A stretch of 46,780 nucleotides of DNA from a virus (Duplodnaviria > Caudoviricetes). Each line of letters opens with the position of its first letter. The first letter of the stretch is position 1. The stretch is from the IMG/VR virus record IMGVR_UViG_3300050162_000282, positions 1-46,780 of that record; one strand, written 5' to 3'. Shown here piece by piece: positions 1 through 46,780 of this stretch. The position numbers and the translations under genes were made by a program. The notes beneath the pieces are model-generated. The model searched no databases. It was not told the DNA's origin and worked only from the letters and a program-made list of their open reading frames with translations.

Positions 1-96
1 AGAAACATCTCCACCAACTTCGTTTGGCATTGTTAGCGATGTTAAAGATGAATTGTTGCTAACAGAAACACCTCCACCAACTTCACTTGGCATTGT
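1..96. repeat. Terminal overlap identical to 46685-46780 (circular assembly join inside a tandem repeat)
   Basis: Direct comparison shows the first 96 nt equal the last 96 nt. Confidence 0.95.
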
Positions 97-312
97 TAGT
101 GACGTTAAAGATGAATTGTTGTGAACATAAACACCTCCACCAACTTCACTTGGCATTGTTAGTGACGTTAAAGATGAATTGTTGTGAACATAAACATCTC
201 CTTCAAACCTAGCATCTTTGGGATTAACCTCATTATTATTAACATCTAACCAAACAGCGATTACTTCATTTCCAACTTTTCTTATTTCATATCTAGTTAC
301 TATTTTTTTCAT
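1..312 (-). CDS. 5' part of LRR-like 21-aa repeat protein spanning the circular join (continues into 45986-46684; ~336 aa if joined once)
   Basis: ATG at 312 reads MKKIVTRYEIRKVGNEVIAVWLDVNNNEVNPKDARFEGDVYVHNNSSLTSLTMPSEVGG..., in frame with ORF 45986..46777. Confidence 0.85.
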   Translation of the reverse strand, partial: MKKIVTRYEIRKVGNEVIAVWLDVNNNEVNPKDARFEGDVYVHNNSSLTSLTMPSEVGGGVYVHNNSSLTSLTMPSEVGGGVSVSNNSSLTSLTMPNEVGGDVS

Positions 313-2711: not shown

Positions 2712-2860
2712 TTCTTTTCTCTCCTTGAGAAAATAGTTTTCCGTGCGATCATTTCGATCGCCATTCCGTTGATATAAATTTCTATTGTTTGTTTATATTA
2801 TGTTGTTGCGTTGCCCATTATTCCCCCTTAAAATTATCGTGTGTTTAGTCATTAACAGCT

Positions 2861-3163
2861 CTTGAATTTCTTACATCAAAATTTTTTACATCAATTTTAC
2901 ATGGCTCATGTAAAGCTCAATGATTTTTAAGGAAACTCGGGGAAACAACTAAGACGAGATTCTTACTCGATAGATTTGTCTTATTAGACACTTATATAAT
3001 TTATAGCCATTTAACTTTACCTGCCCTTTTCGGTCAGATACAATTTATATTATATGAAGTAAATTGTGTTTCCTATTGGAGAAAAACTTAGTTCTTTGCA
3101 TTATCCTTGAATTTTTTTACATCATTTTTACATCATTCAAGTTCGAACTAAATTTTCTTACAT
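2861..3163. other. Probable attP region with integrase arm-type repeats (TTACATCA)
   Basis: Non-coding gap right after int; TTACAT(CA) clusters at 2871-2914 and 3117-3163; CTTGAATTT..TTACATCA on both flanks. Confidence 0.7.
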
Positions 3164-3174
3164 TGTTTCCTTTT

Positions 3175-7478: not shown

Positions 7479-7979
7479 ATGGTTGAGGAATATTTTTTTA
7501 AAAATTTGAGTTATTTACTTGAGAGGGATTCTCTCAAGCAATCTCATTTGGCAAAGAAGACTGGCATTCCACAATCAACTATAAAAAATTGGTTCTCTCG
7601 TAAGAGCTTACCGTCTTCCGATGCACTGAACAAACTTGCAATTGCATTCAATGTAAAGCCGCATTATTTTTTTATGGAGCCAGGTTCTCAAGAACTCCTC
7701 GCTCCTGTCACCGGCAAGACGCTCAACAAGCTTCTTGATCGATTGGCCCATGAGCACTTGACCGAAAGAGAATATAACGACTATCTAACGAATGGAGGGG
7801 TTGAAGGATTCACTAGAATACTTGTCAAAAACCTTGAGCATGAAACGTCAGTTGAATTCCCAGAGTATTTTTTAATTCTAAACAAAGAACTTCATAAATA
7901 TATTTCTATGTCATTGATGGAAAATTTGAGAGTGAAGCTTCGTGAAAGAGATAATCCGAAAAAAGCAGACGCGTCCTAG
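7479..7979 (+). CDS. cI: CI-like XRE-family repressor
   Basis: LKQSHLAKKTGIPQSTIKNW..LPSSDALNKLAIAFNV HTH_3; ATG 6 nt after TATAAT (7467-7472). Confidence 0.8.
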   Translation: MVEEYFFKNLSYLLERDSLKQSHLAKKTGIPQSTIKNWFSRKSLPSSDALNKLAIAFNVKPHYFFMEPGSQELLAPVTGKTLNKLLDRLAHEHLTEREYNDYLTNGGVEGFTRILVKNLEHETSVEFPEYFLILNKELHKYISMSLMENLRVKLRERDNPKKADAS

Positions 7980-8332
7980 TCTTTAAATATTTTCAAACCG
8001 GATTTCCCAGCGAGAATCTCGCTAACTTTAAGGCCAATATTGTTCCCCTTACTAACAACTCCTAGTGCGTCGAGTTCGATTAAAATCAAGCTTCCCGTAA
8101 AGATGATTACTTTTTGAAAATTTATTTGTTTCTCAAAATCAATTATCGTGCAATCGCGATAATCATAGTCTGCAATTATCAAATCAAAGTCTTTTCCACT
8201 TTCTAAAAAATCTTTAGGGTGCTTGAACCACTCAACTTTTACGTTGGGATTTCCAAGATTGATACTGTCAACGATTGAATCAGCGACCATTGAATTGTCT
8301 TCGATAACGGCAATAGTTGGATTTTTCTTCAT
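7976..8332 (-). CDS. Stand-alone response-regulator receiver (CheY-like) protein
   Basis: IAVIEDN, DLIIADY (phospho-Asp), IIFTG, VVSKG conserved. Confidence 0.8.
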   Translation of the reverse strand: MKKNPTIAVIEDNSMVADSIVDSINLGNPNVKVEWFKHPKDFLESGKDFDLIIADYDYRDCTIIDFEKQINFQKVIIFTGSLILIELDALGVVSKGNNIGLKVSEILAGKSGLKIFKD

Positions 8333-10723: not shown

Positions 10724-11485
10724 ATGGAAACGCAAATAGAGAAACCATCATTTGATGAAGTTTATTCTTATGCTACGAAATCTATCGCTCATGCAATTTT
10801 TAAAAATGCCTACTATTTTCCGAACGAAATAAAAGAAGAACTTGAACAAGAAGCAATGCTTCGAGTTTGGAAAGCTTACCAAGTCTTAGATGTATCTAAG
10901 GGATGGAAGTCTTTTATTCAGCTTCATTGCACAGGTGCAGTTTTAGATTATTTAAAAAAAGGCGAACAAAGCACAGAGGCCGAAGTTGAGCTCGAGCAAC
11001 TGCAAGTGATTAATCGTGAAAACGATGACGGGCCTCTGAGCGTTGAAGAGATTGCTGGAATTTTCGAAGATCACTTTGAAGGCGAAATAAAAAAATCAAT
11101 TGATCCAAACTGGGAATTGATTTCAAAAATGGCATGCAAGGATGAAAACCTTCACATCGTGGCCAAGATTCTTTTAGGTTTCAGTCAAGATGCAATTGCA
11201 AAGCAGTTTGAAGTTGCTTATTCTCCAGAAATTTCACGAGAAAGAATTTCACAAAAGTATCATGAATTTTTCAAAAAGCTCGACTCTCCTGAGTTCATCA
11301 ATGATCCATGGGTTAATCAATGTATCTACGCCCTAGGATTGAGTGATATTTTCAAACAGGCAAAATTAGACAATGGATTGGGTTGGGATCTACCCTCGAT
11401 CGATTTAAGCGACACTGAGAGCTTCAAAACAATTCGAAAAATGTTTGCACCTTCTATCTTTGATGTGATTGATTTAGATCAATAA
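10724..11485 (+). CDS. Sigma-70 family (FliA/group 3-like) sigma factor
   Basis: Region 2 EELEQEAMLRVWKA..GAVLDYLKK; region 4 SQDAIAKQF..ISRERISQ. Confidence 0.75.
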   Translation: METQIEKPSFDEVYSYATKSIAHAIFKNAYYFPNEIKEELEQEAMLRVWKAYQVLDVSKGWKSFIQLHCTGAVLDYLKKGEQSTEAEVELEQLQVINRENDDGPLSVEEIAGIFEDHFEGEIKKSIDPNWELISKMACKDENLHIVAKILLGFSQDAIAKQFEVAYSPEISRERISQKYHEFFKKLDSPEFINDPWVNQCIYALGLSDIFKQAKLDNGLGWDLPSIDLSDTESFKTIRKMFAPSIFDVIDLDQ

Positions 11486-11509
11486 AAAAGCCCCAATTAA
11501 GGGGCTTTT
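11484..11509. terminator. Bidirectional intrinsic terminator
   Basis: AAAAAAGCCCC-AATTAA-GGGGCTTTT. Confidence 0.85.
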
Positions 11510-11562
11510 GTTTTGTATTTTGGCTGAACCCACAAGTGTTTCCACCTTTTGGTCGGGGTAGC
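11485..11562 (-). ncRNA. Putative antisense antitoxin sRNA (~78 nt)
   Basis: Own promoter, GAAA-capped internal hairpin, terminator; complementary to 11730-11749, 11772-11781 and 11816-11825 of the divergent mRNA. Confidence 0.75.
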
Positions 11563-11568
11563 AGTTAG

Positions 11569-11596
11569 ATTGTACCACACATCACTATTCGCACAA
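11569..11596 (-). promoter_or_regulatory. Sigma70 promoter of the sRNA
   Basis: TTGTGC-N16-TACAAT with extended -10 TG. Confidence 0.7.
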
Positions 11597-11621
11597 AATT
11601 AAAAAAACTTGAAAAAATAAC

Positions 11622-11650
11622 TTGCATAGCGTAATCTCTTATGCTACAAT
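11622..11650 (+). promoter_or_regulatory. Sigma70 promoter of toxin/HTH transcript with embedded GCATA..TATGC palindrome
   Basis: TTGCAT-N17-TACAAT with extended -10 TG. Confidence 0.8.
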
Positions 11651-11722
11651 TAAAACAAGGGAAGACAAAAGATCAACTTATCGGAATTGTGGGGAATAAC
11701 CCCCCTATAGCCGGAGGCCCTT

Positions 11723-11806
11723 GTGGCTAGTTTTGTATTTTGGCTGAACATTACTTCGTTGGTGATTGGGATTTTGGTCGGTCTTAAATCACTGCTAAAG
11801 AAGTAG
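11723..11806 (+). CDS. Putative type I toxin peptide, 27 aa (not in ORF track)
   Basis: GGAGG RBS, GTG start; MASFVFWLNITSLVIGILVGLKSLLKK, one TM helix with basic tail. Confidence 0.75.
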   Translation: MASFVFWLNITSLVIGILVGLKSLLKK

Positions 11807-11818
11807 TTTTCACCAGTC

Positions 11819-11852
11819 GGGTAGCGAGAAATCGCTACTCTTCCCTTTCTTT
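11819..11852 (+). terminator. Hairpin terminator/attenuator after toxin ORF
   Basis: GGGTAGCGA-GAAA-TCGCTACTC followed by a pyrimidine run. Confidence 0.65.
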
Positions 11853-11860
11853 AGGAAAAT

Positions 11861-12082
11861 ATGAAAAAAGAAATAAAAGACAAACTACTAGAAAAAATTT
11901 TATTAAAAATGAAAGAGCAGAATATCTCTCAGGCAAAGCTTGGCGAAATGCTTGGAGGAACAGAGAGAAGAGTTATAAATCGACAGTTAAACTCAGATCA
12001 AACATCGATTGAAAAATATTTGGATTTTGCCGAAGCACTAAAAATAAAAGTAGAAATTAGGTTTTTAGACGAGTTAGAGTAA
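11861..12082 (+). CDS. XRE-family HTH regulator
   Basis: ISQAKLGEML..SIEKYLDFAEAL. Confidence 0.8.
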   Translation: MKKEIKDKLLEKILLKMKEQNISQAKLGEMLGGTERRVINRQLNSDQTSIEKYLDFAEALKIKVEIRFLDELE

Positions 12083-12452
12083 TTTCGATTCTCTCTTTTG
12101 GATCGTTAAATATTTTCAAACTTCCATCGTGAGAATATACAAGCTTGTCATCAACATACACTTCACATTTTTGCAAAAGATCTTGAACGCCTTCATAGCA
12201 ATTTGAGAGATCCGGCTCATGCTGATGATTCTTGAGATATACCTTCATGCATAGATTGACTGGATAGTTTATCAGTAAATCTTTTTTTGCTCGCATAATA
12301 AAAGGTGCTGCAAAGAGTTCCCATTGCTCATAACGTTCAGACGATCTAAAAAATGGTTTCCGAGAATATTTATTGAACCCGATTTGCTTTGAGTTTTTCT
12401 TTATTCCAGGCCTTCCAGGAATCACACAATGAAACAAAATTTCTTCACTCAT
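12057..12452 (-). CDS. rusA: RusA-like Holliday junction resolvase
   Basis: KKNS, PDLSN...DLL...DDK, ERIEITL. Confidence 0.8.
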   Translation of the reverse strand: MSEEILFHCVIPGRPGIKKNSKQIGFNKYSRKPFFRSSERYEQWELFAAPFIMRAKKDLLINYPVNLCMKVYLKNHQHEPDLSNCYEGVQDLLQKCEVYVDDKLVYSHDGSLKIFNDPKERIEITLTRLKT

Positions 12453-13024
12453 AGATTTTTTAAACTCAATAATCTGTTTGAGCGATTAAGCCAACCGTTT
12501 AAAAATTTTCTTTGAGTAATATTTTTTTCAACAATTTGATTGAATCCTAAATCACAAAGTTTTTTGAACTTGTCTAAAAATTCATTTGGATCTGCCGAGT
12601 TGATAATTGATAGGTCGCTTGTTCCATATAGTTGATTACAATACTTGGGAGGTACGCCAACACCTCGAACAAATCCAATATCACAAAGTGCACAGGCAAC
12701 TCCTTTATTTTTAATTCTATCGAGATCAAGTTTTTCCCAATATAGTTTTCTGAATACATACCTAGCATCGTCCTTAGATAAGTCTTTTATGTTTTGAGAT
12801 GTTGCATTTTTAAATCCAAGCTGAATCAAATCATCCAAAATCACTCCGTACTTGGTAACACCTCCAGAATCAAATTCTTCATTTGAAAGTCCACCCTCGT
12901 TATCCATTGTGTAAGAATAAGCAAAGTCAAAATTTTCACTTACTGGAAATGAATAGCCTTCTGGAATCACCTTGATTGGAGAATATTTTTTAAACATGTC
13001 TTTTACTCTTGAAATCAAACTCAT
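12449..13024 (-). CDS. Endolysin, glycoside hydrolase family 108
   Basis: EGG...DSGGVTKYGV, YW, C-term QRKFLNGWLNR. Confidence 0.9.
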   Translation of the reverse strand: MSLISRVKDMFKKYSPIKVIPEGYSFPVSENFDFAYSYTMDNEGGLSNEEFDSGGVTKYGVILDDLIQLGFKNATSQNIKDLSKDDARYVFRKLYWEKLDLDRIKNKGVACALCDIGFVRGVGVPPKYCNQLYGTSDLSIINSADPNEFLDKFKKLCDLGFNQIVEKNITQRKFLNGWLNRSNRLLSLKNL

Positions 13025-44410: not shown

Positions 44411-44680
44411 CTACGCTTTTTTATTATTTATCATAACAAGCACTCCTTCAACATCAGCACATCTTCTACATACCCACATTTCATATCTTTTAATTTTATC
44501 CTCGGTCTCTTCTTTAAAGAAAGAATGGTGAACTTGTCTTTTATGTCCAAAGATTTTGCATAAAAAGTTATTTCTTCCTTTGTGTATGGTTTTAACTTCA
44601 TCGTGGGAAAAAACTTCAAGTGAATTATTTAAATCTCTTTTATCTTTTCTGTTTTGTAATTTTTGTTCTAGTGTTTCCAT
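44411..44680 (-). CDS. DUF1660-like zinc-binding protein
   Basis: LCKIFGHK...CRRC. Confidence 0.6.
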   Translation of the reverse strand: METLEQKLQNRKDKRDLNNSLEVFSHDEVKTIHKGRNNFLCKIFGHKRQVHHSFFKEETEDKIKRYEMWVCRRCADVEGVLVMINNKKA

Positions 44681-44690
44681 TTTTAATTCC

Positions 44691-44876
44691 TTAAATATCA
44701 TTCGATGATTTTATATTTATAAAACAATTATGGCACTCGCCATCAAAACAATGGTCTACCTTTTCAGTTTTCTCTATGTTGTACCAACCATGTTCATCGT
44801 AATCGATTATGACTTCAAGATTTCCATGCTTTTCTTCTAGTTTTTGTAGCTTTTTAATTAATTCTTTTATTTCCAT
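44691..44876 (-). CDS. Hypothetical protein
   Basis: M..KELIKKL..HGNLEV common small-phage-gene pattern. Confidence 0.6.
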   Translation of the reverse strand: MEIKELIKKLQKLEEKHGNLEVIIDYDEHGWYNIEKTEKVDHCFDGECHNCFINIKSSNDI

Positions 44877-44957
44877 TTTTAATTCCTTATAATTTAATTA
44901 TCAGATTCAGGTTTTCTTCAAGATTGCCGTCAATTACCGCTCAGAAATGGGCGGTGT

Positions 44958-45155
44958 TTATTCTTTTAAAATTATAAACTGCTCCAATAGCTTTACAGTT
45001 TTTTTCCCAATTTTAGATTTATCAAGTCCATTAAATTCATCCCCAATAATTATTGAGTGACCATTTGGGAAATTAATAGACAAGGTTTCGTTATCTATTT
45101 CTCTAATATCGATCACTAAATCAGATTTTTTATCAACCAGAAAGAATCCTTTCAT
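44958..45155 (-). CDS. Hypothetical protein
   Basis: Start at RBS repeat; followed by hairpin 44936-44955. Confidence 0.5.
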   Translation of the reverse strand: MKGFFLVDKKSDLVIDIREIDNETLSINFPNGHSIIIGDEFNGLDKSKIGKKTVKLLEQFIILKE

Positions 45156-45181
45156 TTTTAATTCCTCCACTCGTGCGGTGG

Positions 45182-45589: not shown

Positions 45590-45989
45590 CCTTTTTATAT
45601 TTATGAGTGTAAACTGGTTCTAGTTTTACCCAATGAAAGTCTTCTGGGTAGGTTGAGGCATACTTAAAAAAATCCTCAGTTGATTTATATAAAGCGGACG
45701 AATAATTAGGCCTGTCACTTGTTTTTTTATGCGAATAAACCCTATGCCAAGTAACCTCTTCATACTCTTCTGGGCGGTTGACTAGTTTAATACTTGGGTG
45801 GGTGTGTTCTTCTTGATACTTTCCATATACTGTAAAGCCAATTGGGCGATCATCTTTCTCAATATATAGGCAATATTTCCATGAAATTCTTTGTTTTATT
45901 TCAAAAACCTCATCCCCATAAAACGCACACGTAACCAAATCACCTTTTTTGAATTTAAAATTATTTTCATTATTGTTTTCCATTCTCAT
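45579..45989 (-). CDS. Hypothetical protein (SH3-like N-term)
   Basis: FKKGDLV motif. Confidence 0.55.
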   Translation of the reverse strand: MRMENNNENNFKFKKGDLVTCAFYGDEVFEIKQRISWKYCLYIEKDDRPIGFTVYGKYQEEHTHPSIKLVNRPEEYEEVTWHRVYSHKKTSDRPNYSSALYKSTEDFFKYASTYPEDFHWVKLEPVYTHKYKKGEV

Positions 45990-46780
45990 TCTCCCTTAAA
46001 AAATTCTACAAATTGATTATTCCCATATCGCCCATTTGTTAGTGCAAATACTTCTTTAATTGAATACTTTTTTTCTGTGTCAATTTGAGTGCAAAAATCT
46101 TTTACACCAAACTCGCAAGCTCCAGTAATTGACCTATAAGCAAGAATCAATTCGTCTACCGGCCTCTTTTTTTCTGTGTCCCAATTTTTAAACTGATCAA
46201 CATCTCTTGAAGATAATTTGTACTTTAAAGAATCAATCGCTTCTTTAACTGTCTTTCCATGTGAGAATTGACCATTTCTATAAACACAGTAAGAAATTTC
46301 TTTCTTTCCATATATTCTTATTTTAAAGACATTATTTTTTTGAGAGATAATTTTAGACATTATCCCATCGGCCCAAAGGATATTCTTAGCGAGAAAAATC
46401 GCAGCAATTAAATCTTTAATAGATCCTTGGTGATAATTATTTCCCTTGTTCTCTTTTGGAATATTATAACTTTTTAAAGATGAATTGCTTTCAACATAAA
46501 CATCTCCACCAACTTCGTTTGGCATCGTTAGTGACGTTAAAGATGAATTGTTGCGAACAGAAACATCTCCACCAACTTCGTTTGGCATTGTTAGCGATGT
46601 TAAAGATGAATTGTTGCTAACAGAAACACCTCCACCAACTTCACTTGGCATTGTTAGTGACGTTAAAGATGAATTGTTGTGAACAGAAACATCTCCACCA
46701 ACTTCGTTTGGCATTGTTAGCGATGTTAAAGATGAATTGTTGCTAACAGAAACACCTCCACCAACTTCACTTGGCATTGT
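45986..46780 (-). CDS. 3' part of LRR-like repeat protein
   Basis: 21-aa repeats MPxEVGGxVxVxNNSSLTSLT then C-term HGKTVKEA..ITGACEFG domain. Confidence 0.85.
   Translation of the reverse strand, partial: TMPSEVGGGVSVSNNSSLTSLTMPNEVGGDVSVHNNSSLTSLTMPSEVGGGVSVSNNSSLTSLTMPNEVGGDVSVRNNSSLTSLTMPNEVGGDVYVESNSSLKSYNIPKENKGNNYHQGSIKDLIAAIFLAKNILWADGIMSKIISQKNNVFKIRIYGKKEISYCVYRNGQFSHGKTVKEAIDSLKYKLSSRDVDQFKNWDTEKKRPVDELILAYRSITGACEFGVKDFCTQIDTEKKYSIKEVFALTNGRYGNNQFVEFFKGE
46478..46780. repeat. 63-nt coding tandem repeat (continues at 1-200)
   Basis: Alternating variants form a 126-nt higher-order unit. Confidence 0.95.

Follow-up and report, generated by a model that had tools for sequence, protein, structure and literature searches.

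Type I toxin-antitoxin systems combine a small (20-60 amino acids), usually hydrophobic protein with an antisense RNA of 60-200 nt that has at least 15 nt of complementarity (PMC8594479; PMC4147584). Further marks of the class are expression of both RNAs, repression of toxin synthesis by the antitoxin, toxicity of the protein with rescue by the RNA, and a primary transcript kept translationally inert by sequestration of its ribosome-binding sequence. In the available text of the literature, divergent antitoxins are placed on the 5' UTR and pairing through repeats is found in convergent loci (PMC4147584; PMC7472228; PMC8309996; PMC8594479; PMC12721322; PMC8167048; PMC7667032; PMC6733600; PMC12390103); the reviews among these sources assign repeat-based split pairing to convergent Gram-positive loci and the pairing of divergent antitoxins to the 5' leader. 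The divergent systems (tisB/istR-1, shoB/ohsC, zor/orz, dinQ/agrB and timP/timR) encode a small hydrophobic peptide, with the sRNA gene 5' of the mRNA and not overlapping it, and their perfect pairing of approximately 18-21 nt lies in a long 5' UTR, away from the initiation site and the coding sequence (PMC4147584; PMC8594479; PMC7667032). In the convergent par locus of pAD1 (fst/RNAII), direct repeats in the DNA are read in opposite directions to create the pairing, the repeats cover the Shine-Dalgarno (SD) sequence and start codon, and a terminator common to both RNAs seeds the interaction; its mRNA has a GUG start, an SD-sequestering stem and a 5'/3' helix (PMC7472228). The mRNAs of hok/Sok and aapA/IsoA are highly folded, with 5'-3' pairing and alternative SD-burying helices, and long-distance pairing silences the SD until 3' processing; their antitoxins overlap in cis (PMC6733600; PMC4147584). 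Pairing in the coding region occurs in ibs/Sib, where Sib overlaps the whole ORF in cis and has two recognition domains, and in ralR/ralA, where regulation by RalA is reported to be Hfq-dependent (PMC4147584).

The window analysed here, a 46,780-nt stretch of DNA, is an entire viral record (G000) whose ends repeat over 96 nt. Between a sigma-factor gene (10724-11485, plus strand) and a gene for a Cro/C1-type helix-turn-helix (HTH) protein, it carries a cassette of less than 400 bp (Table 1). Promoter-like boxes, an ORF, terminators and three collinear complementary blocks can be read directly from the letters. On this sequence, the cassette appears to work as type I toxin-antitoxin loci do and is a member of no family tested. 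The probability that it is a type I toxin-antitoxin-like module is put at roughly 0.65, and antisense control of the peptide gene in some form is very likely. A divergent sRNA with split complementarity to a hydrophobic-peptide mRNA had been proposed in a preliminary description; this remains the best reading, with the details of the second site and of activation replaced.

Table 1. Features of the cassette and its flank, in window coordinates.
Feature	Position	Strand	Remarks
Antisense RNA, predicted, ~79 nt	11484-11562	-	start inferred from -10 box; fold z -2.50
Bidirectional terminator hairpin	11486-11509	both	U-tail on both strands; ends predicted sRNA (-) and upstream sigma-factor gene (+)
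Site 1	11510-11529	-	20/20 complement to codons 3-9 (= 11730-11749); A-rich 3' part single-stranded
Site 3	11534-11562	-	complement of mRNA 11801-11825; 22 identities in 30 columns
Site 2	11547-11556	-	10/10 repeat of 11772-11781 (hairpin loop); nested in site 3
sRNA promoter	11569-11596	-	TTGTGC 11596-91, 16 nt, TACAAT 11574-69, TGn extended -10; consensus match only
Peptide-gene promoter	11622-11650	+	TTGCAT 11622-27, 17 nt, TACAAT 11645-50, TGn extended -10; consensus match only
Peptide mRNA, predicted, ~195 nt	11657-11852	+	end helix 11657-64/11840-47; fold z -3.37
Leader hairpin and SD GGAGG (11713-17)	11677-11728	+	competing short helices partly bury SD
27-aa hydrophobic ORF	11723-11806	+	GTG start; one predicted membrane helix, S12xxxG16xxxG20, basic C-terminus
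Long coding-region hairpin	11740-11816	+	6-nt open loop 11774-79; base = targets of sites 1 and 3
Terminator-like hairpin of peptide mRNA	11819-11852	+	-14.2 kcal/mol; U-tail interrupted; 5' arm within site 3 target
73-aa Cro/C1-type HTH gene	11861-12082	+	just behind terminator; no own promoter seen; possible third component

Both predicted products fall within the type I ranges, the peptide by its length and hydrophobicity and the 79-nt RNA, as a sequence, by its 20/20 pairing. The locus resembles the tisB, shoB, zor, dinQ and timP systems in its small hydrophobic peptide, in the divergent, non-overlapping position of the sRNA gene 5' of the mRNA, and in the length of the perfect pairing (20 nt). 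Unlike in those systems, pairing here involves codons 3-9, the hairpin loop and the mRNA's 3' end, and the leader is only approximately 66 nt long; neither peptide nor sRNA gave a sequence match to this group in Pfam, NCBIfam, PDB or Rfam. The locus recalls fst/RNAII in its oppositely read direct repeats, its GUG start, its 5'/3' helix and, in the models, a stem that partly sequesters the SD, and the P/D/S/T-xxx-G motif of Fst and Ldr membrane segments (PMC7472228) recurs, as a low-information motif, at S12-G16. In contrast to par, the genes diverge, a bidirectional terminator is common to the sRNA and the sigma gene instead, and the repeats begin at nt +8 of the coding sequence. There is also no tryptophan between the helix and the charged C-terminus, unlike in Fst/Ldr peptides, although the Fst prototype itself is described without it (PMC7472228). 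Tests of membership in Fst/RNAII fail.

With aapA/IsoA and hok/Sok, the locus has in common a highly folded predicted mRNA, 5'-3' pairing and alternative helices that partly cover the SD in the models, and the antisense RNA is predicted to bind shorter forms better than the full-length mRNA. Unlike those systems, 3' trimming leaves the ribosome site closed in the models, and, as also distinguishes the locus from ibs/Sib and ldr/Rdl, the antitoxin gene is not overlapped by the mRNA (layout as given in PMC8594479). The coding-region pairing resembles that of ibs/Sib and ralR/ralA. RalR, for its part, is a DNase of prophage origin rather than a membrane peptide. No description of a divergent antitoxin that pairs in the coding sequence and 3' UTR turned up in searches of the open-access literature. 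If the proposed reading is true, the divergent layout is joined here to pairing that falls within the coding region and at the 3' end, and a trans-acting antitoxin may arise by plain duplication and internal deletion of a toxin gene. Family-based annotation misses the cassette. The weight of these points is limited by their resting on a single locus in an uncultured phage.

PHROG matches in the genome comprise integrase, repressor-like HTH, exonuclease VIII, Erf, sigma factor, RusA and endolysin, together with the structural genes for portal, terminase, capsid, tail sheath and baseplate. The window is a temperate myophage, as the integrase, repressor-like HTH and tail sheath/baseplate matches indicate. 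TGA is the stop codon in 11 of 53 long ORFs. In the search for a host, portal matches were only 22-25% identical and spread over unrelated hosts, the major capsid gave no match, and the sigma profile matched 2 of 51 genomes around G004, one of them weakly. The region is present in ten DNA runs labelled leaf-litter metagenome, four of which contain at least half of its words, with two of them possible sources; the sequencing-run search listed no RNA dataset holding it. Misassembly of the locus was rejected because an 18,956-nt contig from a second assembly (run X3, which may share a sampling campaign with the source of the window) covers 10851-13000 with 0 differences, so that the repeats are not an assembly error.

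The two promoters were described earlier as back-to-back and strong. Their positions and boxes proved correct letter by letter, and the strength is not borne out, given that both -35 boxes match TTGACA at only 3/6 positions and a generic promoter scan listed neither the plus- nor the minus-strand promoter. A pattern fitted post hoc to both found no third site in 46.8 kb, and shuffled genomes average 2.2. The predicted starts of the two RNAs are approximately 94 nt apart and the genes do not overlap. The predicted sRNA does have its own terminator, as had been stated, in the hairpin listed on both strands. Inspection by eye picked out a short inverted repeat (5-bp arms, 11-nt spacer) over the plus promoter at 11624-11644, a possible operator for the neighbouring HTH protein.

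The predicted sRNA folds better than most shuffled versions of itself (2 of 200 fold equally well), with a 5% share for its best fold. Its second segment had been placed largely in a bulge; 5 of its 10 loop-matching bases are unpaired in this best fold. The 20-nt repeat behind site 1, confirmed letter by letter, was reached in 0 of 1000 shuffles, and 14 nt in one; the window contains two further exact 20-nt repeats (2266/2302 and 44674/44870). The 10-nt repeat of site 2 exists as described; a repeat of its length arises in 125 of 1000 shuffles, within chance alone. Site 3, overlooked in the preliminary description, is complementary to the stop codon, the 3' UTR and the terminator's 5' arm, and its alignment score was equalled in 3 of 2000 shuffles. 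Because site 2 lies inside the 5' segment of the sRNA that also makes up site 3, the two sites are alternatives. Bare duplex energies are -28.7 kcal/mol for the exact 20-mer, -28.6 for site 3 and -15.6 for the loop site, and all words of at least 6 nt shared between sRNA and mRNA are in the coding sequence or 3' UTR, with none in the leader.

In alignment, the sRNA template is collinear with the peptide gene and runs through codons 3-9, a gap, the last codon, the stop and the 3' UTR. With this third, longer match, the sRNA resembles the peptide gene copied with an internal deletion and read in the opposite direction, and it probably originated by local duplication of that gene and loss of the middle. 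The collinear blocks, the presence in the genome of other short repeats of ordinary origin, and the failure of the searches to show conservation would also fit the leftovers of a small gene duplicated locally not long ago, with a minus-strand RNA that is unmade or has no role. Such an origin without function is considered highly improbable, given that the copy is without SD, start codon and ORF middle, is flanked by a promoter and a terminator of the minus strand, and has kept the blocks that form the two strands at the hairpin base.

None of 200 shuffles equalled the fold of the peptide mRNA. Its ends are complementary over nine positions as reported, of which eight form a helix (mean P 0.88; ninth pair P 0.16). 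The SD, said to be enclosed by TAGCC/GGCTA, is partly buried in the models, with 3 of its 5 bases mostly paired at all four transcript lengths modelled; that helix is a minor fold (P 0.22), and GGCC/GGCU (P 0.70) and the leader segment 11677-84 compete for the SD. Burial of the initiation region is no more than moderate: its opening costs 11.9 kcal/mol versus 7.6 +/- 3.7 for 29 phage genes, five of which are higher. The long hairpin in the coding region was also recovered, with base helices at 11740-48/11809-16 and 11750-57/11800-07 and a loop open over 6 nt rather than 10. In the trimming models, the opening cost was 9.8-12.9 after 3' trimming versus 10.1 at full length, and 7.3-9.5 after 5' trimming. 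End pairing thus has no effect on burial of the ribosome site in these models, and the hok/aapA-like end-paired activation suggested earlier is not supported; the end helix is more likely to stabilise the mRNA, or to weaken it as a target for the antisense RNA, than to silence it.

The coordinates of the 27-residue ORF were verified letter by letter. The peptide has a GRAVY of 1.41 (best 19-residue window 2.09), three C-terminal lysines, no acidic residue and a single tryptophan at residue 7, and its small and polar residues N9, S12, G16, G20 and S23 lie on one face of the helix. Among mononucleotide shuffles, 126 of 20,000 gave an equally hydrophobic open frame, as did 21 of 3,000 among dinucleotide shuffles. 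The other two frames are interrupted by stops, and the ORF is the only plus-strand one among 11 GGAGG-plus-start sites. The idea that the peptide is a by-product of G/U-rich hairpin RNA was rejected on the rarity of such frames in the shuffles.

Toxicity is suggested by this composition. A non-toxic phage membrane protein under sRNA control, serving superinfection exclusion, lysis timing or modulation of a host membrane protein, would fit all of the RNA evidence equally well, and the position of the locus, close to where the late/lysis genes have their far end (endolysin, 12449-13024), agrees with it. Endogenous TimP, moreover, is tolerated after deletion of its sRNA (PMC7667032). This alternative is nevertheless considered unlikely on balance, because a buried SD, end pairing and a dedicated 20-nt antisense site typify toxic peptides (PMC6733600; PMC4147584).

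As the preliminary description anticipated, the peptide is not a recognised one: it matched nothing in Pfam, PHROG, NCBIfam or PDB sequences (Pfam, NCBIfam and PDB at E up to 10, with HMMER filters that drop weak matches), and Rfam returned no family at gathering score and 26 sub-threshold, terminator-like matches. The tblastn search for homologous loci that it had suggested found no phage record and a single plasmid record, a chance match in an MFS transporter (E 9). Searching the region by blastn gave nothing in plasmids and 420 phage records, the best 20 of which all lie over the terminator hairpin. Patterns run on viral contigs were likewise negative: FVFW[LF]NI (115 loci, none peptide-like in 64 short-frame rows inspected), the SD stem (119 of approximately 240 loci, none similar in 53 short-ORF rows), the 3' motif (119 of approximately 480 loci, 0 with a hydrophobic ORF) and the C-terminal half of the peptide (one match, an unrelated 25-codon frame). 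Searches from the HTH protein returned only itself, from integrase only unrelated phages, and from RusA nothing. Look-alikes of the peptide in the ESM Atlas (0.83-0.86, unnamed) serve as a lead only.

For the 29 sigma-factor proteins, DNA was compared at three viral, one genome and two metagenome loci, all distant, and the peptide was found in 0 of 4 sigma-related records. Identity is 32-36% at the five viral and metagenome loci, with three complete records among them without the peptide, and absence from such distant phages says little. An architecture scan over the window and 95 loci (1.07 Mb) listed 174 SD-bearing hydrophobic small ORFs, with 30 rows having a repeat of at least 12 nt; the cassette was the only row in the window, and three related phages had none except one 12-nt row. 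No homologue having been found in these searches, conservation and covariation lend no support to the module, and a single locus does not earn the word family. Contigs of run X6, from the same habitat, contain related-phage fragments over 10954-11451 and 12180-12922 at approximately 82-91% identity; they do not cover the cassette and are uninformative on its presence. Deeper assembly of this habitat could supply a homologue.

Cofolding of the sRNA with the full-length mRNA gave a gain of -16.2 kcal/mol versus -4.0 +/- 3.0 with shuffled sRNA (0/60). For mRNAs ending at 11752, 11785, 11800, 11816, 11826 and 11840, the gains were -26.0, -28.6, -27.1, -21.9, -34.4 and -24.7, respectively, so binding peaks on the RNA ending at 11826, and four of the five RNAs that end at or before this position show gains of -26 to -34. 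Forbidding site 1 reduced the full-length gain to 0.0 and forbidding site 3 reduced it to -14.0; site 1 is therefore essential for binding to full-length mRNA in the model. The 10-nt loop was rejected as the main second site on full-length mRNA because the gain was unchanged without it. The loop site contributed 6.6 to the RNA that ends at 11785, and all loop-site figures are to be read with loop-loop pseudoknots (kissing) outside the program's model. Site 3 was worth 12.1 kcal/mol on the RNA ending at 11826, and the match to the 3' UTR and terminator accounts for the second main site better than the hairpin loop does. When both strands were searched outside the sRNA's own template, the peptide mRNA was the best partner (-45.8; next -35.9).

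The cofolds suggest an order of events for the proposed toxin-antitoxin-like module. The U-rich beginning of the site 1 target (10 nt) is nearly open, at a cost of 0.5 kcal/mol, and faces the unpaired A-rich stretch of the sRNA. Contact would be made there, just after the start codon, and would zip to 20 bp inside the footprint of the initiating ribosome, with a 4-bp extension over 11725-28 possible only if the sRNA terminator opens. Next, the opposite strand at the foot of the coding hairpin (11806-11825) would be bound by the sRNA's 5' portion. In the cofold, both strands of the base are gripped and the upper hairpin remains closed; the 10-nt match to the loop may serve as a passing contact while the nascent RNA is still shorter.

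Pairing just downstream of the start codon is established as a block to initiation for bacterial sRNAs. The first 24 coding nucleotides are discussed in this connection in PMC12721322. By analogy, the duplex would block initiation and RNase III may cut it, and the divergent RNA would prevent translation of the 27-residue peptide, for which insertion into the host membrane is predicted. Should the sRNA no longer be supplied, on prophage loss or when another phage shuts off transcription, translation would start on the folded mRNA, the more stable of the two RNAs, and the membrane would be depolarised by the peptide. The role considered most likely is stabilisation of the prophage.

The reach of site 3 into the terminator also bears on the downstream gene. 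It covers 11816-11825, and an sRNA anchored at site 1 could capture this 5' arm and permit read-through into the Cro/C1-type gene, with the ORF serving as a leader or as a co-regulated toxin. Capture of the arm places the complex only 0.6-1.7 kcal/mol higher than the terminated form, binding is at its peak on the RNA ending at 11826, the mRNA terminator has an interrupted U-tail, and 11760-11861 contains two TAnnnT hexamers only and no fitting extended promoter for the HTH gene. Nevertheless, the best equilibrium cofold retains the terminator, a weak terminator may permit read-through by itself, capture would require binding within approximately 100 nt of elongation, and no homologue ties the HTH gene to the cassette. 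A switch that exists for the downstream gene is thus judged quite improbable. The models also raise the combined and rather unlikely case of an undescribed class of phage RNA switch, in which an internally deleted gene copy would clamp the hairpin base, silence a membrane toxin and, via capture of the terminator arm, switch on the Cro/C1-type regulator. If true, an addiction module would be tied to the transcriptional control of the phage.

Several minor observations concern the rest of the genome. The sigma gene upstream of the cassette is of the sigma-70 type and belongs to an unnamed family that, with itself counted, numbers 29 proteins (32-59% identity, the closest relatives at 44-59%); every member comes from a metagenome-type source and several lie on 40-50 kb contigs. 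A 50%-identical piece is found on a 1452-nt contig (L119) within a Gracilibacteria genome bin, possibly a mis-binned phage fragment. A 118-aa protein (7976-8332, minus strand), convergent with the repressor-like gene, has a weak response-regulator receiver match (Pfam E 0.027). The 463-nt non-coding stretch 3' of integrase (2712-3174) contains repeated TTTTACATCA words and is a candidate attachment site; no tRNA was found. At 44674-44693, 44870-44889 and 45153-45166 (minus strand), the same ribosome-site-plus-start sequence opens three consecutive small genes, exact over 20 nt in two of them, and resembles repeated gene-start modules. The gene across the record ends (45986-46780 and 1-200, minus strand) carries 63-nt tandem repeats (21 aa), and because the 96-nt terminal overlap falls inside them, their copy number may be uncertain. 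A 263-aa part of this gene has a relative upstream of the sigma gene in another locus (L121).
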